A DNA stretch of 64,000 nucleotides from Leptospiraceae bacterium (GTDB taxonomy: Bacteria > Spirochaetota > Leptospiria > Leptospirales > Leptonemataceae). Below the pieces are notes generated by a model that made no database searches, was not told the origin of the DNA, and saw only the letters and a program-made list of their open reading frames with translations. The position numbers were made by a program, and so were the translations under genes. Location: contig JAVJNR010000003.1 of assembly GCA_040217195.1 (NCBI GenBank), positions 608,001 through 672,000 of the forward strand, read 5' to 3'. Below are positions 34,064 through 59,547 of the stretch, in pieces. Within the stretch, counting starts at the first letter, position 1; each line of letters begins with the position of its first letter.

Positions 34064-34137
34064 GCGGGTGTGGTGTAACGGTAGCACAATAGCCTTCCAA
34101 GCTCTTAGAGGGGGTTCGAGTCCCCTCACCCGCTCCA
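34064..34137 (+). tRNA. tRNA-Gly (anticodon TCC)
   Basis: Acceptor stem GCGGGTG/CACCCGC, anticodon loop CT-TCC-AA, T loop GGTTCGAGTCC, encoded CCA. Confidence 0.96.
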
Positions 34138-49707: not shown

Positions 49708-52700
49708 ATGAGAAGTAAATTTGCCCGCATCCTATTATTCACAGGCCTGTTCGCCTGTCTCTCCTGGAGTTGCATTGCCGTCCTAACATCGGAGAACTCG
49801 AAATCAGAAGAGGATCGAAAGTGGGCCTTGCTTGGTCTCGTCAGCTCGCCAGAACAGAACGCATTGATTTCCACTCCACCCACCGTTGCAATGGAAGGCT
49901 ATGACCCGGCGCTGTTTCAGGTAGAACAAAGATCTGAGCCAGAGGAAATCGCTGTACCAATTTATGGAGAGCACTATGTTTCCATCGGGCATATCTTTGA
50001 CATCGATATAGATACAAGCCAGATGCCCGGGGCCCCGGAGGAGTATGAAACCGTAGTGCTTCCCCCAGGACAGATGGCTGAACTGACCTATGAATACGAT
50101 GAGGCGATGCTGGAAGAGAAAGGCCTCATTGAAGAATTCCAGGTATTCTCCTACGATGCAGCTTCCGGCCAATGGATTCCCGCAATGGAGCTGGAAGTAG
50201 ATAGAGAAAACAATCGGGTTATCGCACGCACAAACCACTTCACTCCTTTTGTTATTACCGCCCTTCCTCAGCCTGCCGATGGCGGAGTGTATGAACCACC
50301 TCAGTGCATCGTGGACGCTTTGCAGGACCCGGCCGGGGGTTTGACGGGACCAAAGTGGAGCCGCCTGGATGTGGGTTTTAAGTATTATATCGATCGCGGA
50401 TACACCATCCGTCACAACGATGAATTCTATGACCTGAAACTGAATGAATCACTGGGCATTTCTACCTGCAACGGAGGCACTCATGCCTCCTCCAGTAGCT
50501 ACTGCGGTACCGAGGCGCAACATAAGCATTCCGCGGCTATAGATTACCTGGATTTTTCCATTCCCTTTGATGCGAAGGTCTATGTAATGTATGACTCCCG
50601 CGGAACAGAGCGAGCGGGCTGGCTCGATGATCTGGGTTTCACTATTATTGAAGACACTTACGTAGAAACTACAGACGATGTTCGCTATTACGAAGTCTAC
50701 GAGAAGGATTACAGCGCGGGTTCGCAGGTTACTCTTCCGGGAAACCATTACGATCTGGGAAGTCCCAATCAAATCAATACAAACTACTTCGTGGCCGTGC
50801 TACCGCAAGGGGACTGGGCCACCCAGGCCGGTATCGACTGCTCGGGTCAACCCTTGCGTCCGGCCAAACCAGAAGGCATTTCGCTGATTCCCGGGTCGGA
50901 CCGCATTTCCATTGTACTGGACCAGCAGATAGAACGTGAAGTCACGGGCTTGATCGTTCGCCGGCGACTGCAAGAACCAGCTATGTCACCAGAACGCGGA
51001 GAAGCCTTGGGACTCGATATTCAGGACCCAGGGTACATGATAGATACCGGGCTCACCGAAGGAATGGTCTACTATTACAGCTTCTTTGCGGTTACAGATG
51101 ACGGGCTGTATTCTGCTCCGCTCATTCTGTCTGCTCAAACCGGACCCGATGATGATGGGGATGGCCTTGCGAACTACTATGAAAACAATCCATCCATCGT
51201 CTACTACGGCGGAAACGGCACGGAACCATCCCAGGATGATACAGATTCTGACGGCATTGATGATCTGACCGAGGTCTTAGAAGGAACAGATCCAACCCAT
51301 AGCGATCATACTGCGCCGGTCATCATAGGCTTTAACGACAACAGAACCATCAATACTATACCGATGGCTCGTTTTCACATCGAAGTGGAAGATGAATCGG
51401 AAATCACCGGCTACTATATATCGGAAGGCACGACCCCTCTGCCCAACAACTCCAACGAATGGATCACGGAAAAACCAAACACATGGCCCATCGAAAGCCT
51501 GGGAGAAGTGACTCTCAATCTCTGGGTACGCGATGAAGCTGGCAACGTGAGCGAAATGGCCAGTCTGGAACTGGAGTTTCCGTATTTTAGCTATACGGAG
51601 AAGCTCATAATTTTCAGCGCAGAATATCCAGCGGCCTCCCTAATCCCGCTGGACTGGGCGAACTTCAATACCCGCATTCCCTCCGGCATCGGACCTTCGC
51701 CGGATTATACAGAATACGCCTTTGGCCAGGGAGGACTTCTTGCGATAAATGGCACTTCCATCCGTTTCCTTAGCGAAGATGGACAAAATGAAATATTCAC
51801 TGCTAACTCGCCGCTTCCAGACAATGCTGTCGTTGACTCTCTAGATTACGATGCAGACGACGATTTCTGGATTTTGTCGTATCATCTGGAATCAGAGCCA
51901 ACCAGTGTGGATTGTGACACGATATGGAATTCCCAATGCTTTGTTTCGTTGAGAATCAACCCTTCAGAAGGCTCTTACCAGGTCGTAGATACCATAATTG
52001 CAGGTGCTCCTGCTAGCCCATCCTCCTTTCGCAGGGAAGGCCAAGAATCGAACTATGACTCAAACCAAAACCGGTTGAGTATCCAGATAACCAGAGTCTC
52101 CTATTACAATGGTGGTTTCGTATCTGTCCCGTTACTTATCATGGTAGATTTTAGCAACGATCAATTTAACTTGCAGCATCTGGTCCTGGACCAACGATTC
52201 TTCTGGCCCCACCCTTTGCCAACCGATCCGGCATTTGTACCAAACTTCGCATTCGCACCCGATGATCCCCTTGTTGTCATGACGGGAACTCCCGCTACGA
52301 GAGGCGAAAATGGTTTGCACGTTATGCGAAGAAATACCGGCACCTTTGACTACTTTGAAAGCCAGATAGGTAATGTCTGGCAGCCGCTAGGCACCTACCT
52401 GCCTGAGTACACCTATGAAAGTGTTGGCTTCCTATCCGAGGATCGGCTCCTTGCTGTCCGGGTGGGGGCAGTGGATCTCCTGGCATTCGACACCACCACG
52501 GGCGCGATATCATTTATCAAGCAAATGGATGCAGATGCCAGCATCACCGAAGGCAGCACTTTAGAAATTAGCGAATCCGGGGATGTCGCCATAATTCTAA
52601 CTGCTGAGCATTCCCGATTACTAATGATCAATAAAGAAAGGGAAGAAATATGGCGCAGGAAGCTGATCGGGCACAATCCGGCCGCTGGGACCAGAGGCAT

Positions 52701-53754
52701 CGCTTTTCTTGATCGTAAGCGTGGGAATCAACCGCCATCCATGAGCTTTGGCCTGGCAAGAAGTCATCCGGTAGTAACTCCGGCAGGTCTCATATTTCCT
52801 TTTACTGGCATGGTGGATCCTGGCCAGGAGTGCTATCATTATGGGACCTTCTGGGGCGGCTATGATCAAAACCCGACTCATAAATGGCAGTTGGCTGAGG
52901 TGAAATACAGGGACCCGGACCACCAGTCCTGCGGTGTAGGGCAGCAACCTGCATCTATCTCCATAGTGAACTCCTCAACACCCACACCTTCTTCTCTAGA
53001 AATTCCTTTTAATCTGCACACTGGTTTAAATTTCTCAGAACTGAATGCTGCGCAGCAGCTGACGTTGATGGAAACACTGGTAGGCGATCAGAAGACAAAG
53101 GTATGTCCCGGAGTATTGGAGCAAGCTGACAACTCCGGAATCGGCATTCCCATTACCGCGAAAGATGTCGGAGATTACTCGATTACAGTTCAAGCGACTG
53201 ACTCCCGTGGCTCTTGCGAGGGCTCGGATCAAACGGCGCGAGCCACCCTGACCCTGAAAGCCCGAGAGCGCATTGCGAATACAGAGAGCTTCCATATTCG
53301 CAGCAATGAATATCCTGAACCACGCTCTGACATGGAGCATTTTTCTCTGGAATACAATCCACGGACCCGACGAGCACAGGATTACACCCATTTTCAATGC
53401 CGGGTGCACTCGGTGGCCTGCATTCGCATCGGACATCTATTTCTGTGCGGAGACAATACGCATTTGAGTGCCCCACATGTAGCCAAGAGCTCAGAGGCAA
53501 AATGCGGTCCTCCACTTTTCTTTCTGAAGCGCTGGACCTCAAGAACGGGCGTGTCCGCTCCTTTACAGCAATACAAACCGCTCTACAAGTATCACGATAA
53601 GGCAAATCATTACTGGAATGAATCATGGGACACTCCGGCTTTCGATCCATTTCCTACTGAGGATAAGCGAGGGTTTCTGTTTATTCAGACGGAGCAATTC
53701 GTTCTGCTGGAGCGTCTCTACTATGGTAAATGGATGGGCTTTCAGGAACCTTGA
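49708..53754 (+). CDS. Large multidomain surface lipoprotein (1348 aa)
   Basis: Signal peptide ending SWSC; NHFTPF motif; FN3-like DTGL...YYYSFFA; Ca-binding DxDGDG repeats; Ig-like LWVRDEAGNVS; propeller-like region; Cys-rich C-terminus. Confidence 0.7.
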   Translation: MRSKFARILLFTGLFACLSWSCIAVLTSENSKSEEDRKWALLGLVSSPEQNALISTPPTVAMEGYDPALFQVEQRSEPEEIAVPIYGEHYVSIGHIFDIDIDTSQMPGAPEEYETVVLPPGQMAELTYEYDEAMLEEKGLIEEFQVFSYDAASGQWIPAMELEVDRENNRVIARTNHFTPFVITALPQPADGGVYEPPQCIVDALQDPAGGLTGPKWSRLDVGFKYYIDRGYTIRHNDEFYDLKLNESLGISTCNGGTHASSSSYCGTEAQHKHSAAIDYLDFSIPFDAKVYVMYDSRGTERAGWLDDLGFTIIEDTYVETTDDVRYYEVYEKDYSAGSQVTLPGNHYDLGSPNQINTNYFVAVLPQGDWATQAGIDCSGQPLRPAKPEGISLIPGSDRISIVLDQQIEREVTGLIVRRRLQEPAMSPERGEALGLDIQDPGYMIDTGLTEGMVYYYSFFAVTDDGLYSAPLILSAQTGPDDDGDGLANYYENNPSIVYYGGNGTEPSQDDTDSDGIDDLTEVLEGTDPTHSDHTAPVIIGFNDNRTINTIPMARFHIEVEDESEITGYYISEGTTPLPNNSNEWITEKPNTWPIESLGEVTLNLWVRDEAGNVSEMASLELEFPYFSYTEKLIIFSAEYPAASLIPLDWANFNTRIPSGIGPSPDYTEYAFGQGGLLAINGTSIRFLSEDGQNEIFTANSPLPDNAVVDSLDYDADDDFWILSYHLESEPTSVDCDTIWNSQCFVSLRINPSEGSYQVVDTIIAGAPASPSSFRREGQESNYDSNQNRLSIQITRVSYYNGGFVSVPLLIMVDFSNDQFNLQHLVLDQRFFWPHPLPTDPAFVPNFAFAPDDPLVVMTGTPATRGENGLHVMRRNTGTFDYFESQIGNVWQPLGTYLPEYTYESVGFLSEDRLLAVRVGAVDLLAFDTTTGAISFIKQMDADASITEGSTLEISESGDVAIILTAEHSRLLMINKEREEIWRRKLIGHNPAAGTRGIAFLDRKRGNQPPSMSFGLARSHPVVTPAGLIFPFTGMVDPGQECYHYGTFWGGYDQNPTHKWQLAEVKYRDPDHQSCGVGQQPASISIVNSSTPTPSSLEIPFNLHTGLNFSELNAAQQLTLMETLVGDQKTKVCPGVLEQADNSGIGIPITAKDVGDYSITVQATDSRGSCEGSDQTARATLTLKARERIANTESFHIRSNEYPEPRSDMEHFSLEYNPRTRRAQDYTHFQCRVHSVACIRIGHLFLCGDNTHLSAPHVAKSSEAKCGPPLFFLKRWTSRTGVSAPLQQYKPLYKYHDKANHYWNESWDTPAFDPFPTEDKRGFLFIQTEQFVLLERLYYGKWMGFQEP

Positions 53755-53845: not shown

Positions 53846-53873
53846 TTGACAATTTCGCTCTCTAAAAAACACT
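53846..53873 (+). promoter_or_regulatory. Putative sigma-70 promoter of the corrinoid operon
   Basis: Perfect TTGACA, 16-nt spacer, weak -10 AACACT, just upstream of the riboswitch. Confidence 0.45.
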
Positions 53874-53887
53874 GACATTGTCTTTCT

Positions 53888-54029
53888 TCTGGGAGGAAAG
53901 GGGTGCAAATCCCCTGCTGACGCGCAACTGTGATGGTCCAACGTATACCGGACCTTAGCCAGATCTTCCCTGCAGCCAAGCCGGCGCGAAATACGGCTAC
54001 TGCATCTCAAAACGCTATCGCGTCTGAGG
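53888..54029 (+). ncRNA. Cobalamin (B12) riboswitch, compact form
   Basis: GGGAGGAA-AGGGGTGCAAATCCCCT-GCTGACGCGCAACTGT...AGCCAGA core; closing stem GGGAGGA/TCTTCCC; lies upstream of cob genes. Confidence 0.88.
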
Positions 54030-54081
54030 GGCCCCGGAGGAAAGTACCGGGGCATTCACTGATCAGGCGCCGATCCTTGAA

Positions 54082-54108
54082 TCTCCCGGAATAAACTTTT
54101 ACGGGAGA
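54082..54108 (+). promoter_or_regulatory. RBS-sequestering hairpin (probable riboswitch expression platform)
   Basis: TCTCCCG pairs with CGGGAGA, which contains the SD 5 nt before the ATG at 54114. Confidence 0.65.
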
Positions 54109-54113
54109 AAACG

Positions 54114-54683
54114 ATGAAACGTTTTTCAACACCGGTGGCCCTGATATTGGCTGCCTTTTTAACAACAAATTGTGGGGCCCTGGGCCTGGATGAGGATAAT
54201 TCGGCCGCCGAACAGGAGCAACGCATTCTGGGCCTTACAACAGGGCTTGTTTTTTCCGAAGCGCAAGATCTGGCGCTGAACGGATCATGGAATTCATTTT
54301 CCGGCAATGCTACCACATCCGATACCATTACCACGATTATGGGCCGTAAAAACTCTGGACTCTGGTTAGACGACTCTAGCGGTTTTGGTGGTTATACGTC
54401 GCGCTACTTGATAGCCGCGTACGATAATAGTGCAGGCTATGTGATTACCCAGAATCCACCGAACAATGGAGCCTACTCCGGCGACGCAACGAAAGGAAAG
54501 TATTTCAAAATTGTTTTTTTTGCCGAAGGCAGTATCTACTGGCATTGCACTCTGAATGGGAGCGATGCCAAAGATACTCTTGCCGAGGCCCAGGCCATTT
54601 CCGATACCGCCGACCGATCGGACCCTGCTTCGAGCGGCTGTGGTGGATTCTCCTGGTCACGATTGGAACGTGTAGATAGCTGA
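54114..54683 (+). CDS. Exported lipoprotein, first gene under the B12 riboswitch
   Basis: Signal peptide with TTNC; YWHC...GCGGFSWSRL probable disulfide; resembles the leptospiral LIC13354-type family (from memory). Confidence 0.6.
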   Translation: MKRFSTPVALILAAFLTTNCGALGLDEDNSAAEQEQRILGLTTGLVFSEAQDLALNGSWNSFSGNATTSDTITTIMGRKNSGLWLDDSSGFGGYTSRYLIAAYDNSAGYVITQNPPNNGAYSGDATKGKYFKIVFFAEGSIYWHCTLNGSDAKDTLAEAQAISDTADRSDPASSGCGGFSWSRLERVDS

Positions 54684-54696
54684 GCAAAAGTTCACC

Positions 54697-55590
54697 ATGG
54701 GACCCCTTACGGAAAAAATAATTCCAGGCAAGCTACACCTTGCGCTACTGACCCTCCTGGCTTGCTCGGCCTGCTCACCGTCAACCGGCGGGGATGAATC
54801 CCTGCTTCTGGCCGCTGCCCTGCCCTCAGGCGGGTCCGGCGACCAGGCCTGCCTGGAGCAGTGGCCATTTTCTGTCGGCGCGTATCTTGCGGATGCATCG
54901 GTGAACGCCGCGGTGGGACCAGAGACGTTCGATGATCCTACACGAGCTACTAACAAGATATGCGGCGGTGGCTGGACCGCCGGCTCCACAGATGTGTATT
55001 CCACCGGTACTTCCAGTGAATGCGAATCCGGCGAAAAATGCATTGTTCTGGAATGGACAGACAAGAAAGTATTAAATGCAACCGGCATAGACTTTGTAGT
55101 GTACGAAAATCCATTTCTACACGGAACGAATCCCAACAGTCGATTCCTGGAACCAGTCATTGTTGAGGTTTCCATAGACGGCAGCAACTGGTGCGGATGG
55201 AATCCTAACTATAGCGGAAGCAGTGGCGCTACAGACTTGCGTAACCCAGGGAACTATTCAGACCTGGCCGCCATTACTCCGGTTACTTTCAAGCAAAGTG
55301 ATTCCAATACTCTAACTGCAGATGATCTGTTCACAGAGACCACCGATAGCTATGGAACCCATCTAAAGGGGGGCGGCGATGGATTTGACCTGGATGCCTC
55401 CAGCTTCGGAAACACAGGCAGTGGCTGCAATTCCACGATCAGGGATAATATCCGAAGTTCAGGATTTGTCTATTTGAGACTAACTACGGCCTATACACGG
55501 GATAGCAGCTCATTTCCTCTGGCTAATGACTCCTTCGATCAAGAGGCTGACATAGATGGGGCGGTTGCACGGAGCGTAGCGGATCGATAG
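54697..55590 (+). CDS. Surface lipoprotein with a BtuH-like domain (LIC13355-type)
   Basis: Lipobox LACSAC; DFVVYENPF, EPVIVEVSIDG..W, GGDGFDL, DIDG motifs. Confidence 0.6.
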   Translation: MGPLTEKIIPGKLHLALLTLLACSACSPSTGGDESLLLAAALPSGGSGDQACLEQWPFSVGAYLADASVNAAVGPETFDDPTRATNKICGGGWTAGSTDVYSTGTSSECESGEKCIVLEWTDKKVLNATGIDFVVYENPFLHGTNPNSRFLEPVIVEVSIDGSNWCGWNPNYSGSSGATDLRNPGNYSDLAAITPVTFKQSDSNTLTADDLFTETTDSYGTHLKGGGDGFDLDASSFGNTGSGCNSTIRDNIRSSGFVYLRLTTAYTRDSSSFPLANDSFDQEADIDGAVARSVADR

Positions 55591-55661
55591 GCCCGGCTAT
55601 AGATGATAAGGAATCGGTTGAAAGTAAAATGCTAAAAGAAACCATGGAACCCAGAGTGATT

Positions 55662-56120
55662 ATGATGAAACAATTTGCGCTAATTACAATTCTAACGGTT
55701 GCCAGCATGGTGGCCTGTTCTGACAAACCGGCCCAGCCCGAGGCGGGTGCCGGCTCAGAAGTTCAACTTAGAGTGGAACTTCCGGCAGCAGAGGCTGCAC
55801 CCATCGATGCAAAATTAGAATTCCAGGGCACCGTCCTGGACCTGATGCAAAAAGCCAGCGATGATAAAGTGCTAACCTTTAAAAAAGAAGGAGAAGGTGA
55901 GCAGGCTCTGATCACTACGATTCAGGGAATAGGCCCGTCCGGCGAAGGTGATGACTCAAAGTACTGGATTTATGCAGTAAATGGAAAGATGGCCAACGTT
56001 GGAGTTGGAACGATGAAAGTAAGTGGCGGAGATGAAGTGCGCTGGTGTTATCTTACATACGAGAATCGAAAGAGCTGCGCTGATAATGCAGCAACTGAGG
56101 AAACGGGCGCCCCTGAATAA
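55662..56120 (+). CDS. DUF4430 / transcobalamin beta-domain-like lipoprotein
   Basis: Lipobox VACS; TVLDLM...ITTIQGI...YWIYAVNGKMANVGVGTMKVSGGDEVRW. Confidence 0.8.
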   Translation: MMKQFALITILTVASMVACSDKPAQPEAGAGSEVQLRVELPAAEAAPIDAKLEFQGTVLDLMQKASDDKVLTFKKEGEGEQALITTIQGIGPSGEGDDSKYWIYAVNGKMANVGVGTMKVSGGDEVRWCYLTYENRKSCADNAATEETGAPE

Positions 56121-56189
56121 GGACGGGCCGTTTCAAAAATGTCCCAGAGGACGCGGGCTTAAAGCCCAGAAATAATTGAGGAGAAAAAC

Positions 56190-56747
56190 ATGAAATCTAC
56201 AAACAAAAAAGAAATCGTATTAAATGCGCTGCTCATCGCAGGCATGATCGGATTTGCAGTTGCGGCAAGAGTTGCCCCTCATCCTGCAAACTTCGCTCCC
56301 ATCGCCGCACTTGGTATGATGGGTGGTTACATTTTCGCAAACAGAAAATGGGGCCTTTCTATTGTCATGGTAGCCATGCTTCTGAGTGATCTGGTCATCG
56401 GGATTGAAAGCATGGAACTTAGACTGGCCGTATACGGCGGACTTATGATATCTGTATTCGCAGGTGGACTGCTACGAAATAAAGATAACAAGAAATTCTT
56501 CGCCGGTCTCCCGGTAGCCAGCCTAGGATCGTCCATTGCATTCTTTGTGATTTCAAACCTTGCTGTATTCGCATTCAGCGGAATGTATACTCACAGCTTT
56601 TCCGGTCTGGCTCTTTGCTACATTAATGCCATTCCATTCTTCTGGAATACCCTTGCAGGTGACCTGATCTATTCCGGCCTGCTTCTAGGACTGGTTCGCA
56701 TGGTTCAGATCTATGCGGACAAAGAATCTATGATTCCTCAGGCATAA
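56190..56747 (+). CDS. DUF6580-type membrane protein, ECF S-component-like transporter
   Basis: 185 aa with about 6 hydrophobic segments; PHPANFAPIAA, LSDL.IG, FFVISN..V, CYINAIPFF.NT..GDL; strong RBS GAGGAG. Confidence 0.72.
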   Translation: MKSTNKKEIVLNALLIAGMIGFAVAARVAPHPANFAPIAALGMMGGYIFANRKWGLSIVMVAMLLSDLVIGIESMELRLAVYGGLMISVFAGGLLRNKDNKKFFAGLPVASLGSSIAFFVISNLAVFAFSGMYTHSFSGLALCYINAIPFFWNTLAGDLIYSGLLLGLVRMVQIYADKESMIPQA

Positions 56748-56848
56748 AACCATCAGAGTTAAGGGTTTAGATAGACGCAGACTCCTCCGGGCAAGGGCCC
56801 GGAGAGCTGCATTCGTCTTTTTGGCCAGCTGTAGAAGCAATACTAAGT

Positions 56849-57928
56849 ATGAGTCCGTCCGGTAATTCCCCTGGTACATTAGATGATCCCGGCATATCGT
56901 CCGGAGAAATCCTTTCGGATGAAGAACTGTGTTCTAATATCCAGAAAAAGATAGACGCAAAAACCAAACCACCAGGATCCCTGGGAAAGTTAGAAAGCCT
57001 TGCCCTTCGTATAGCTCTTAGACAGAAAACCGCAGAACCTACCTTCAAGCGACCTACGATTCTGGTTTTCGCCGCGGATCACGGTGCTACAGCCCATGGA
57101 ATCAGTGCCTTTCCCCAGGAAGTAACCAGACAGATGGTTCTCAACTTCTTACGTGGTGGAGCCGCTATCAACGTCTTCGCACGTCAGAGCGGAATGGAGC
57201 TTCGAATTATTGACTCCGGTATTGCAGGTCCACCTATTGAGCACAACGGCCTAATTAGACTGCCCGCCGGCGAAGGAACCGCCGATTATGTGATTCAGGA
57301 TGCAATAACCTCAGAACAGCTGGAATTCTGCAAAAACAGTGCTGCAACTGTCATAGAGGGGCTGGAACGTTCCGGATGCAACCTGGTAGGCTTTGGAGAG
57401 ATGGGCATCGGAAATACTTCCAGCGCCAGCCTCATCCTGCATTTTCTGGGAAACGTTAGTCTGGAAGAATGTGTAGGTGCAGGCACTGGTCTCGACCTGA
57501 ACGAACAGAATCATAAGCTAAACGTTCTACAAAAAGCCAGAGACAGAAAGCCATCAATTACTGAACCCGAAGAAGTTCTTCGTTCCTTCGGTGGTTTTGA
57601 AATAGCGCAAATGTATGCAGCGATGAAGATCGGCCATGAAAAAGGAATGTTACTTCTGATTGATGGATTTATTTCCAGTGCTGCATTCCTGGTTGCTTAC
57701 TGCGAAAATCCGGAAGTTTTATCGTCTGCAGTCTTTTGTCATCGATCGAAGGAAAAAGGACATCAAAAGCTTCTAGAAATATTCCAGGCAGAACCTGTGC
57801 TGGACCTGGAAATGCGACTGGGCGAAGGTACCGGATGCGCCCTGGCATTCCCGATTCTACGCAGTTCCATTGCATTTCTTAATGAAATGGCAAGCTTTGA
57901 AAGTGCCGGAGTAACGGGCTCCGGCTAA
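56849..57928 (+). CDS. cobT: Nicotinate-nucleotide--dimethylbenzimidazole phosphoribosyltransferase
   Basis: KTKPPGSLGKLE, FAADHG, GGAAIN, GEMGIGNT, GGFEI, MRLGEGTG. Confidence 0.96.
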   Translation: MSPSGNSPGTLDDPGISSGEILSDEELCSNIQKKIDAKTKPPGSLGKLESLALRIALRQKTAEPTFKRPTILVFAADHGATAHGISAFPQEVTRQMVLNFLRGGAAINVFARQSGMELRIIDSGIAGPPIEHNGLIRLPAGEGTADYVIQDAITSEQLEFCKNSAATVIEGLERSGCNLVGFGEMGIGNTSSASLILHFLGNVSLEECVGAGTGLDLNEQNHKLNVLQKARDRKPSITEPEEVLRSFGGFEIAQMYAAMKIGHEKGMLLLIDGFISSAAFLVAYCENPEVLSSAVFCHRSKEKGHQKLLEIFQAEPVLDLEMRLGEGTGCALAFPILRSSIAFLNEMASFESAGVTGSG

Positions 57929-58030
57929 ATCCTGGGCTTTCGCAGAATCGCCATACCCGCCAGGCGAATTGAGACAGCTCCTTCCTCGGTGTTGCCTGAA
58001 CTCCTGGGATCTATTCACACCGAACGAACG

Positions 58031-58810
58031 ATGCAAACTCTTCAGAAACACTGGAACCTATTCTGGATGGCCTGGATCTTTTATACGAGAATCCCGGTTC
58101 CATTTACTATAGCCCACAGTGACCAATCTCTGCAGCACTCCAGATGCTACTTCCCCCTGGTTGGACTTCTAATAGGTTTAGTTTCTGCCGGCTCCTTCTT
58201 ACTGGCAGCATTTGTATGGAACACGATGATCGCCATTCTGATCTCTATGTTTCTCTCCATCTGGATCACGGGAGCATTTCATGAAGATGGTCTTGCAGAC
58301 TCCATGGATGCACTGGGAGGTGGATGGACGAAAGATCGTATTCTAGAAATAATGAAAGATAGCCGCATTGGGACTTTCGGCACGGTGGCTTTGATTCTAA
58401 TACTTTCCTTCAAGTTTGCAGCCAGCTGGACTATTGCCCAAAAAAGTGCTCATAGCTTTGCAATCACCCTCATATTTGCACATACTGCCAGTCGATACCT
58501 GACCTCTTCGCTTGTGGATTTTATGCAATACTCAGGTGCAGGCCCTGGCAGCAAATCCAAACCCATGGCCAGCACGCCCCTGCCCGCTCTCTATCGCCTG
58601 CCTGGCTTACTGGCACTCATAATATCCACAATACCGTTTTATGATACTCCTCTCCTTCTGCTGGGCTTCTTTCCCGCTTTATTTGTCTGTATTTACTGGT
58701 CCAGCTTCATAAAAAAATGGATTGAAGGGTACACCGGAGATACCCTGGGCGCTCTGCAGCAACTAACTGAAGTCATCATCTATCTCACAGCTGCCATGTC
58801 CTGGATCTAA
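58031..58810 (+). CDS. cobS: Adenosylcobinamide-GDP ribazoletransferase (cobalamin synthase)
   Basis: FYTRIP, TGAFHEDGLADSMD, IMKDSRIGTFG, GYTGDTLGA. Confidence 0.96.
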   Translation: MQTLQKHWNLFWMAWIFYTRIPVPFTIAHSDQSLQHSRCYFPLVGLLIGLVSAGSFLLAAFVWNTMIAILISMFLSIWITGAFHEDGLADSMDALGGGWTKDRILEIMKDSRIGTFGTVALILILSFKFAASWTIAQKSAHSFAITLIFAHTASRYLTSSLVDFMQYSGAGPGSKSKPMASTPLPALYRLPGLLALIISTIPFYDTPLLLLGFFPALFVCIYWSSFIKKWIEGYTGDTLGALQQLTEVIIYLTAAMSWI

Positions 58811-58863
58811 ACCTGCTATATTTCACTCCTGCATGCTCAAGCTACCTACAGGATTCGTAGACT

Positions 58864-59547
58864 ATGGAACTTCATATTATTCGACATACACAAACATCGG
58901 CGTCACCGGGAACCTGTTATGGTCATACGGACCCGGAACTTCCAGAAAATCATCTTCAGGATTTTTACAGAGTCTTTGCAGAGCTAAATGTCCGATGCCC
59001 GGATCCTGGAAGTATCTATTCCAGTCCTTCCATTCGCTGCCAGTCGCTGGCCCAGTTTTTGCTCGATGAATATCAAAAATCTAGAGCAGCCATTGTAACT
59101 GAAGCATCTACTGGAAACAATGAATCAGACATATATGGAATTACCGGTTCGGACCATTCCATCCGGGCACTGCATTCCCCTGCAAAGTTAGAGCTAAGGT
59201 CCAGCTTGATGGAGTTGAATTTTGGAGAATGGGAAGGACAGAACTATAATAAAATTCCGCAGCAAGAATTGAAGGCCTGGATGGATGATTTCGTGCATCG
59301 GGCACCGCCCGGTGGCGAGAGCTATTTCCAGCTGCATGAACGAACCAGAACTTTTTTTGAGCAATTCAAGCAAGAAACCCTGGAAAGAAGCAAAGTAGAT
59401 CAAAAGCCTTCCATCATTGTTACACATGGAGGCGTTATTCGATGCTTTTTAGAGATACTGCTGGAGACTTCTCTAGAAAAGGCCTTCTATTTGCAAGTGC
59501 CCTATGGCTCTATATTCTCCTTTCGCCTTCCGGACCGGGAGCAATAG
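58864..59547 (+). CDS. cobC: Alpha-ribazole phosphatase (histidine phosphatase family)
   Basis: IRHT, CYGHTD, SSPSIRC, ELNFGEWEG, PGGES, VTHGGVIR; follows cobS. Confidence 0.85.
   Translation: MELHIIRHTQTSASPGTCYGHTDPELPENHLQDFYRVFAELNVRCPDPGSIYSSPSIRCQSLAQFLLDEYQKSRAAIVTEASTGNNESDIYGITGSDHSIRALHSPAKLELRSSLMELNFGEWEGQNYNKIPQQELKAWMDDFVHRAPPGGESYFQLHERTRTFFEQFKQETLERSKVDQKPSIIVTHGGVIRCFLEILLETSLEKAFYLQVPYGSIFSFRLPDREQ

Follow-up and report, generated by a model that had tools for sequence, protein, structure and literature searches.

Seven ORFs, all on the + strand, follow a putative cobalamin riboswitch in the 64,000-nt window (the whole stretch of DNA that was analysed), with intergenic gaps of 13-101 nt that contain no terminator-like sites. 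The first two genes encode LP1 (ORF1; 54114..54683, 189 aa), a LIC13354-like lipoprotein, and LP2 (ORF2; 54697..55590, 297 aa), a lipoprotein of the LIC_13355 family and a candidate corrinoid-binding protein. They are followed by the gene for a DUF4430 lipoprotein (55629..56120; PF14478, E 1.8e-15), which probably starts a few codons downstream of the called start, and by that for a DUF6580 membrane protein (56190..56747; PF20221, E 6e-41), a solitary S-component. At the N-terminus of LP1, LP2 and the DUF4430 protein a hydrophobic stretch precedes a Cys, and all three are predicted lipoproteins on that account. The last three genes are cobT (56849..57928), for nicotinate-nucleotide-DMB phosphoribosyltransferase (DBI_PRT; TIGR03160, 390 bits, above the NCBIfam cut-off of 319), cobS (57989..58810), for cobamide synthase (PF02654, E 2.8e-53; TIGR00317, 108.4 bits, slightly below the cut-off of 110), which may alternatively start at the ATG at 58031, and a cobC-like histidine phosphatase gene (58864..59547; His_Phos_1; best match TIGR03162, 140.9 bits, below the cut-off of 162.9). 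The ORF coordinates and family matches confirm the seven co-oriented genes behind a cobalamin riboswitch that an earlier note on this DNA had described; its statement that TonB receptor, BtuFCD and ECF genes are absent from the operon is borne out by the ORF list and by family profile searches.

An Rfam search at the gathering score finds no riboswitch at the locus. The AdoCbl model RF01482 matches the compact aptamer (P3-P6; 53891..53970, + strand) at 32.8 bits (E 2.7e-4), under the cut-off of 50, and among six homologue loci scanned with Rfam clan CL00101 one passed RF00174 and the others fell short. The structure itself is conserved: P4 and P6 are paired in 217 of 217 cells of 31 aligned homologues, with 30 cells changed on both sides (at three of the seven P4/P6 pairs), against 19-57% pairing in slid controls, a comparison that favours the structure because it was drawn from the same 31 sequences. 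A near-identical copy also lies upstream of a BtuB-like gene elsewhere in the genome. The covariation in 31 relatives and the homologues speak against reading the Rfam null as "no riboswitch"; judged by sequence, the sub-threshold riboswitch is real and above chance. What stands of the claimed riboswitch is a covarying aptamer with a match below the gathering threshold, and the B12 regulation that the note had proposed for the operon is supported as a prediction.

The aptamer is followed by a P13 hairpin (53971..54004) with a loop able to kiss aptamer loop L5 (CGCG, 53921-53924). For all three main L5 types the best pairing partner is the L13 type found with it, with which the Watson-Crick duplexes are on average the longest (4.2, 4.0 and 3.0 bp), although these duplexes are short and the lineages are not independent. 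Further downstream, the MFE fold places the ribosome-binding site of the first gene (GGGAGA, 54103-54108) in a hairpin (54082..54108) that is also present at two related loci (L054, L055). Forcing this site open in the folding model makes the 5' P3 strand of the aptamer pair with the anti-SD instead, at -77.1 versus -82.7 kcal/mol. On these folding models, B12 binding would keep the aptamer shut, so that the first ribosome-binding site stays hidden; without B12, the aptamer 5' strand could pair with the anti-SD, which would release the site. The ligand-free MFE already prefers the OFF fold by 5.6 kcal/mol, which counts against this switching model. The compact riboswitch was matched in all 103 genomes searched of one Leptospiria family (f2), which makes B12 sensing a probable ancestral trait of the group. 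For L. biflexa, the available part of one early genome paper does not list a cobalamin riboswitch. Compared by eye, the riboswitch at locus L104 is identical over the overlap to rh4854, which a supplement of PMC7567364 gives as a transcribed "putative cobalamin riboswitch".

The two lipoproteins are not as uncharacterised as they had seemed at first reading: LP2 scores 225 bits with NF033170 (the LIC_13355 family; cut-off 120), and LP1 matches NF047669 (the LIC13354 family) weakly, at 24.3 bits (E 3e-5) against a cut-off of 130. LP1 does occupy the LIC13354 position in the cluster, a Cys/Gly pattern is conserved in 25 aligned proteins, and an LP1-type gene lies directly 5' of the LIC13355 gene at 34 of 48 loci. 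Its Atlas clusters are mostly from Spirochaetota and allow no family assignment (lipocalin-like rows are sub-threshold only), and a PDB search gave no match. LP2 keeps company with the riboswitch: in Leptospiria, one lies within 1.5 kb upstream of the LP2-family gene on the same strand at 46 of 48 loci (the riboswitch model was built from 31 sequences, of which 28 come from these 48 loci), and RF00174 matches upstream of Myxococcota LP2 homologues at 15 of the 23 loci scanned. A TonB receptor homologue is near 23 of 80 Myxococcota homologues; at 6 of 40 loci, LP2 is directly followed by TonB receptor and propeller-like genes. The family is present in 131 of the 151 Leptospiria genomes searched.

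LP1 and LP2 might nevertheless be adhesins, or surface proteins of another kind, that share the transcript and nothing more, with DUF6580 carrying an unrelated vitamin. Recombinant LIC_13355 does bind laminin, plasminogen and endothelial cells (PMC11891782), and many DUF6580 paralogues have no B12 context. The riboswitch, however, stays with LP2 where the locus is rearranged (LP1 present or absent, cobTSC or a TonB receptor alongside) and in another phylum as well; LP2 is also found in 103 of 103 f2 genomes, and is therefore not confined to one host-associated genus. This explanation is accordingly very unlikely, and the analysis most likely ties the LP2 family, so far studied as an adhesin, to B12 uptake. 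LP2 would serve as an accessory corrinoid binder at the outer membrane, and LP1 may be a second accessory. LIC13354 and LIC13355 are up ~3.7-fold in host-like chambers (PMC3953431), a rise that B12 starvation acting through the riboswitch would simply explain.

A close precedent for such surface proteins is the BtuB-BtuG-BtuH system of Bacteroides (PMC8941943), in which accessory lipoproteins also accompany a riboswitch-linked TonB receptor. Like BtuH domains, distant homologues of LP2 are found on their own, behind Ig repeats or behind a propeller-like region, and the invariant Asn138 and near-invariant Phe140 of the LP2 family have the spacing of Asn399 and Phe401 of BtuH2. In contrast, no BtuH or BtuG sequence match was detected here, and Bacteroides use BtuCDF at the inner membrane (PMC8941943). 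Searches of the PDB with three LP2 profiles and one single protein found no sequence link to solved B12 binders, BtuH included, and are compatible with a distant relation; Pfam and NCBIfam scans of distant members and a plasmid search gave no BtuH link either.

The DUF4430 protein matches the C-terminal part of haptocorrin 4KKI weakly (E 0.011), so that the transcobalamin-like binder of the earlier note retains a haptocorrin-like signal, with binding itself as a prediction. The co-occurrence with DUF6580, for which the note had proposed a survey, is found in all six relatives with a strong DUF4430 match, the DUF4430 gene lying directly before the DUF6580 gene in each. CbrS of Lactobacillus delbrueckii is presumably a DUF4430 lipoprotein as well; in its cluster, as here, a gene precedes the one for the S-component (nrdJ-cbrS-cbrT-pduO). 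The DUF4430 lipoprotein would be placed as a binder beside DUF6580.

The assignment of DUF6580 as an S-component, likewise proposed before, is upheld by fold and by sequence. The top 15 rows of a structure comparison (VIA-align) with a model of pLDDT 92.7 (a single-sequence fold reached only 53 and was unusable) are all S-components (Z 9.7-15.2), headed by BtuM 8OVV (Z 15.2, rmsd 2.9 over 164 residues, 12% identity). Foldseek returned nothing at E <0.001 for the model, though S-components headed its list. Among PDB entries, the DUF6580 profile matches the sequence of one alone, the B12 S-component CbrT (6FNP, E 8e-4). DUF6580 is also solitary, as had been claimed: EcfT (PF02361) was found neither in this genome nor in any of 130 genomes with DUF6580, and the three of 151 class genomes in which EcfT was matched are all without DUF6580. 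The fold does not fix the substrate, since identity to BtuM is 12% and other S-components reach Z 11-13. Ten of the DUF6580 loci fetched from outside this operon had no riboswitch match, and of these just one has B12-uptake-like neighbours. A literature search largely confined to non-subscription papers found none naming DUF6580 or PF20221.

BtuM of Thiobacillus denitrificans (PMC6072759) resembles DUF6580 in its S-component fold, in a host that has no ECF module and whose genome also encodes BtuB and an adenosyltransferase, and in a conserved His and Asp at like positions (His31 and Asp67 versus His28 and Asp67, an approximate equivalence). It differs in that DUF6580 gives no profile match to it, has three lipoproteins alongside and has no invariant Cys: BtuM requires Cys80, whereas among 84 DUF6580 rows Cys143 is present in 57 and replaced by Ser in 25. 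CbrT alone did not transport B12 and required its ECF module (PMC5997447); here, in contrast, a host with an outer membrane gave no EcfT match. DUF6580 would be an S-component that works without an ECF module and lets cobamide through by facilitated diffusion, the mechanism proposed for BtuM, and PduO, encoded elsewhere, would trap the product of import. The lower-ligand importer CblT is the model for another assignment, by which DUF6580 imports DMB or alpha-ribazole for CobT, not corrinoid. The DUF6580 gene does lie directly before cobT here, at two related loci (L055, L063) and at 5 of the 40 loci L104-L143. Five of six relatives, however, keep riboswitch-LP1-LP2-DUF4430-DUF6580 without adjacent cobTSC, three genomes (G138, G128, G131) are without any CobS match, and the nearest sequence and fold matches of DUF6580 are corrinoid carriers. 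Lower-ligand import is thus improbable.

The absence of a receptor from the operon and the presence of three lipoproteins ahead of the S-component had suggested a self-contained lipoprotein relay running from the surface to the S-component as an alternative to TonB-dependent uptake. No operon product is able to span the outer membrane, however, and a BtuB-like TonB receptor is encoded on contig C1, together with a second lipoprotein, behind the near-identical twin of the riboswitch; at locus L057, the TonB receptor gene follows DUF6580 in the same operon. The best 10 of the 11 PDB matches of the C1 receptor are BtuB-type or Bacteroides TonB receptors, eight of them named vitamin B12 receptor or transporter. 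Because of this receptor under the twin riboswitch, the B12 route is not TonB-free, and the relay, as it was proposed, can be given hardly any credence. The C1 lipoprotein has no Pfam, NCBIfam or PDB match; its sequence and position suggest to us a BtuG-like propeller. It and the receptor would bring cobamide across the outer membrane.

The rest of the genome points to a cell that depends on such uptake: it encodes five B12-binding domains and PduO; MetE was not found in it, and a relative's set of de novo cob genes has no orthologous match there. The host is thus a predicted B12 auxotroph of the Leptospirales. The only strong FecCD-type ABC system, also on C1, adjoins HemS/ChuX and HmuY genes and is for that reason taken to be a haem system; a BtuCD role was judged unlikely for it, with BtuC as the best NCBIfam match of its permease, below the cut-off. 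A second FecCD match (L009) is weak. Together with a lone BtuF-like protein, the haem ABC system could carry some B12.

The cobTSC genes are a detachable add-on to the four-gene core (LP1-LP2-DUF4430-DUF6580), adjacent to it in only one of six relatives. In the established pathway, CobT, CobS and CobC normally act downstream of CobU. CobU, CbiB and CbiZ were not found in this 93.7%-complete genome, and tblastn with the proteins of a relative that we take, from gene position, to be CobU, CbiB and the one in the CbiZ position gave no match. Neither of the two same-genus genomes gave a CobU match, nor did any of 39 genomes from genus g10 (36 with CobS), and 62 of 105 genomes with CobS have no CobU match. 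The set of genes that marks canonical cobinamide salvage (CobU/CobP, or else CbiZ with CbiB, ahead of CobS) had no match in the assembly; of the completion of imported corrinoids claimed earlier, cobTSC is there and the steps before it are not found, which weakens the claim. Remodelling of the lower ligand fits the missing CobU and CbiB better than does the finishing of cobinamide. Since the genome is 93.7% complete and many of the relatives have bases withheld, the absence of cobU is not proven, and uptake as set out above could be combined with a cobTSC that finishes cobinamide in the usual way, with the help of a cobU that the assembly lacks or of an unrecognised stand-in. Besides cobalamin, cobinamide is a substrate of CbrT (PMC5997447). 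Against this stand the negative tblastn searches and the same gap in both same-genus genomes and in g10; finishing is unlikely. On the remodelling view, CobT, CobS and CobC would make alpha-ribazole-phosphate in the cytoplasm and exchange the lower ligand of imported cobamides with no need of CobU, in the manner reported for CobS of Vibrio cholerae (PMC7733943); CobS, given a supply of alpha-ribazole, could do so without CbiZ; the case for remodelling here comes solely from the missing cobU.

The reading that best accommodates these facts, at a probability of roughly two in three, is that the operon forms one of two riboswitch-repressed loci through which a B12 auxotroph of the Leptospirales scavenges whole cobamides. 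Its parts are of known kinds: riboswitch, BtuB, S-component and cobTSC. In gene order the locus looks to be an enlarged form of the Leptospira cob II cluster (LA_4202, LA_4203, cobT, cobS, cobC; Fouts et al. 2016, PMC4758666): two lipoproteins are followed by cobTSC in the same order, with LP2 above the LIC_13355 cut-off, a correspondence that the earlier note had overlooked. It differs in the insertion of DUF4430 and DUF6580 and in a genome without cob I/III. The available part of PMC4758666 says of this pair of cob II lipoproteins that they "may or may not" join B12 synthesis, and assigns them no transport role. A more ambitious joint reading, which is tentative and somewhat doubtful, makes the LIC_13355 family a distant BtuH-like B12-capturing lipoprotein, DUF6580 the ECF-independent cobamide carrier of Leptospirales, and cob II in cobU-less species a CobS-based remodelling module. 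If true, the order would have a full route of B12 scavenging that has not been described before, controlled by a compact riboswitch too weak in score for standard thresholds. Our literature search found no Leptospira-focused paper on BtuM, CbrT or BtuH; the supplements of PMC4758666 and PMC5243855 may already note the riboswitch or the operon. Leptospira papers, in their available parts, name btuB as the B12 receptor and no inner-membrane B12 transporter. The cluster most likely helps to capture B12, to move it through the inner membrane and to replace its lower base, and the locus offers testable candidates for that transporter and for the role of the cob II lipoproteins.

The operon is real; it varies an established type of locus for B12 uptake and salvage in a new way. 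Its seven ORFs occupy the positions given in the earlier note. All are on the + strand, and the 13-101 nt gaps between them contain no terminator-like sites. Pfam matches (DUF4430, DUF6580, DBI_PRT, CobS and His_Phos_1) confirm the gene contents read from the sequence, except that the two lipoproteins are not uncharacterised: ORF2 (LP2) falls in the NCBIfam LIC_13355 lipoprotein family and ORF1 (LP1) weakly matches the LIC13354 family. Two lipoproteins and cobTSC are what Fouts et al. describe as cob II in Leptospira; the operon is this cluster carrying an insertion of DUF4430 and DUF6580. The window also holds a tRNA gene (34064-34134) and a 1348-aa Cys-containing protein (49708-53754), which shows Ig-like and TSP3-like stretches, cannot be placed confidently in any family and is missing from the same position in both same-genus relatives.

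The stable unit is riboswitch-LP1-LP2. Among 48 LIC13355-family loci, hand-picked across genera out of 131 positive genomes, a riboswitch lies on the same strand within 1.5 kb upstream in 46 (28 went into building the riboswitch model, 3 are regex matches not used for it, and the model itself detected 15), and LP1 is immediately 5' in 34. What follows LP2 differs between loci: cobTSC, DUF6580 followed by cobT, or, directly after LP2 in 6/40, a TonB receptor and a propeller-like gene. DUF4430 immediately precedes DUF6580 in all six relatives with a strong DUF4430 match, the pair being followed by cobTSC in one, a TonB receptor in one and neither in four. Nine weak DUF4430 matches in g10, a genus of Leptospiria, are all located elsewhere; the sole one examined (L065) has no B12 context. 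In one relative (G009, L063:8524-10555), cobT is fragmented and cobS is interrupted by stop codons, but the riboswitch and the genes for LP1, LP2 and DUF6580 are undamaged. In g10, LIC13355 paralogues number two or three in many genomes, and up to five riboswitch-model matches occur per genome; both paralogues examined in one such genome (G017, L115 and L116) have their own compact riboswitch.

No Rfam cobalamin model reaches its gathering score at the operon leader. The cobalamin riboswitch that had been proposed there is borne out by a sub-gathering RF01482 match at 53891-53970 (E 2.7e-4) and by covariation: an alignment of homologues from 31 loci shows an invariant core, and P4 and P6 pair in 217/217 cells, with double-sided changes in 30, against 19-57% in slid controls (P3, where the alignment is out of register, was excluded). 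L5 loops fall into three main types, and each finds its best partner in the L13 loop of its own type. The 31-sequence model has matches in 134/150 class genomes. In fold predictions a hairpin at 54082-54108 covers the ribosome-binding site (SD) of ORF1; if this site is constrained to stay unpaired, the anti-SD pairs instead with the aptamer 5' strand, an arrangement that points to an OFF switch acting on translation. The predicted ligand-free fold is already on the OFF side, so that switching itself is putative. A perfect TTGACA hexamer (53846-53851) lies ~40 nt upstream of the aptamer with a weak -10; a promoter scan makes no call at it. The compact element is partly in print already: PMC7567364 gives three putative cobalamin riboswitches, and in its supplement rh4854 matches the copy of one of our loci (L104), while rh1913, between LIMLP_06575 and LIMLP_06585 of L. 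interrogans, is another compact riboswitch of this kind. Two earlier papers had reported a pair of cobalamin riboswitches, one at btuB and the other at cob I.

The LP2 domain reaches far outside the spirochaetes: 252 representatives have E <=0.001, and a distant sub-profile matches 2606 proteins or more. One subfamily, in Myxococcota, is a clear homologue (probability 99.9). RF00174 scores above cut-off upstream of the Myxococcota homologues in 7/11 and 8/12 loci scanned, 23 of 80 having been selected for long flanks, and, of all 80, 23 have a homologue of a TonB receptor close by; thus the B12 link of LP2 crosses phyla. In its domain architectures and in an Asn-x-Phe motif the LP2 family is reminiscent of BtuH; four PDB searches yielded no link between the two, and the resemblance is offered as a possible lead. 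The sole functional paper on LIC_13355 (PMC11891782) reports binding of laminin and plasminogen; the words cobalamin and B12 are absent from its text.

That DUF6580 is an S-component, as the earlier note had surmised, is right. A structure model built from 84 homologues (pLDDT 92.7) retrieves S-components as all of its top 15 structural matches, with BtuM first (Z 15.2), and CbrT (6FNP) is the sole match of a PDB sequence search. A cysteine test rules out membership of the BtuM family. DUF6580 is present in 130/151 class genomes and EcfT in only 3, all outside those 130, which makes DUF6580 solitary. Its nearest named relatives are from 'Leptospiraceae bacterium', and the host therefore probably belongs to the Leptospirales. 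One locus (L070) reads riboswitch-LP1-like gene-DUF6580. Ten DUF6580 loci outside this operon have no riboswitch, and one of these adjoins BtuF-like, propeller-like and TonB receptor genes; the family may therefore have other substrates too.

The relay without a TonB receptor envisaged from the operon finds no support. A twin riboswitch at C1:338057-338218, near-identical to that of the operon, stands before the gene of a TonB receptor with BtuB-type proteins as its best PDB matches, which is followed by a 433-aa probable lipoprotein with no family match (G000:C1:322000-340000; L001:12320-15869, minus strand); the receptor ORF seems to begin close to the riboswitch, 5' of the called start. The genome's sole strong FecCD-type ABC system has haem genes on both sides. 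A haem uptake operon (L229:8176-15130; G000:C1:716-723 kb) includes a 627-aa ABC ATPase ORF fused to ChuX/HutX and HemS domains, and a BtuF-like substrate-binding protein (L011:1411-2325, on C2) stands alone, the 3.7 kb examined containing no gene for a permease. A third cobalamin riboswitch, this one full-length (87.8 bits; G000:C1:176558-176775, L007:2559-2776), has as its only downstream gene a 79-aa Cys_rich_CWC protein (PF14375; L007:2971-3210), tying this small family to B12.

Five B12-binding domains and PduO are present; searches of the genome (93.7% complete) found neither MetE nor CobA/BtuR, and the de novo cob genes of a relative have no orthologous match in it. CobU and CbiB were likewise not found. 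Across 151 class genomes CobS occurs in 105 and CobU in 44; 62 of the 105, including 36 of g10, have no CobU match, a cross-count in which CobU may be hidden by withheld bases in some. Without CobU the standard route gives cobinamide no path to CobS, and the notion that cobTSC finishes cobinamide is unsupported. Lower-ligand exchange based on CobS, as described for V. cholerae (PMC7733943), would be the simplest use of cobTSC without CobU. The value of the locus lies in the link between LIC13355 and B12, in a candidate for the inner-membrane carrier of Leptospirales, and in a cob II cluster without cobU.
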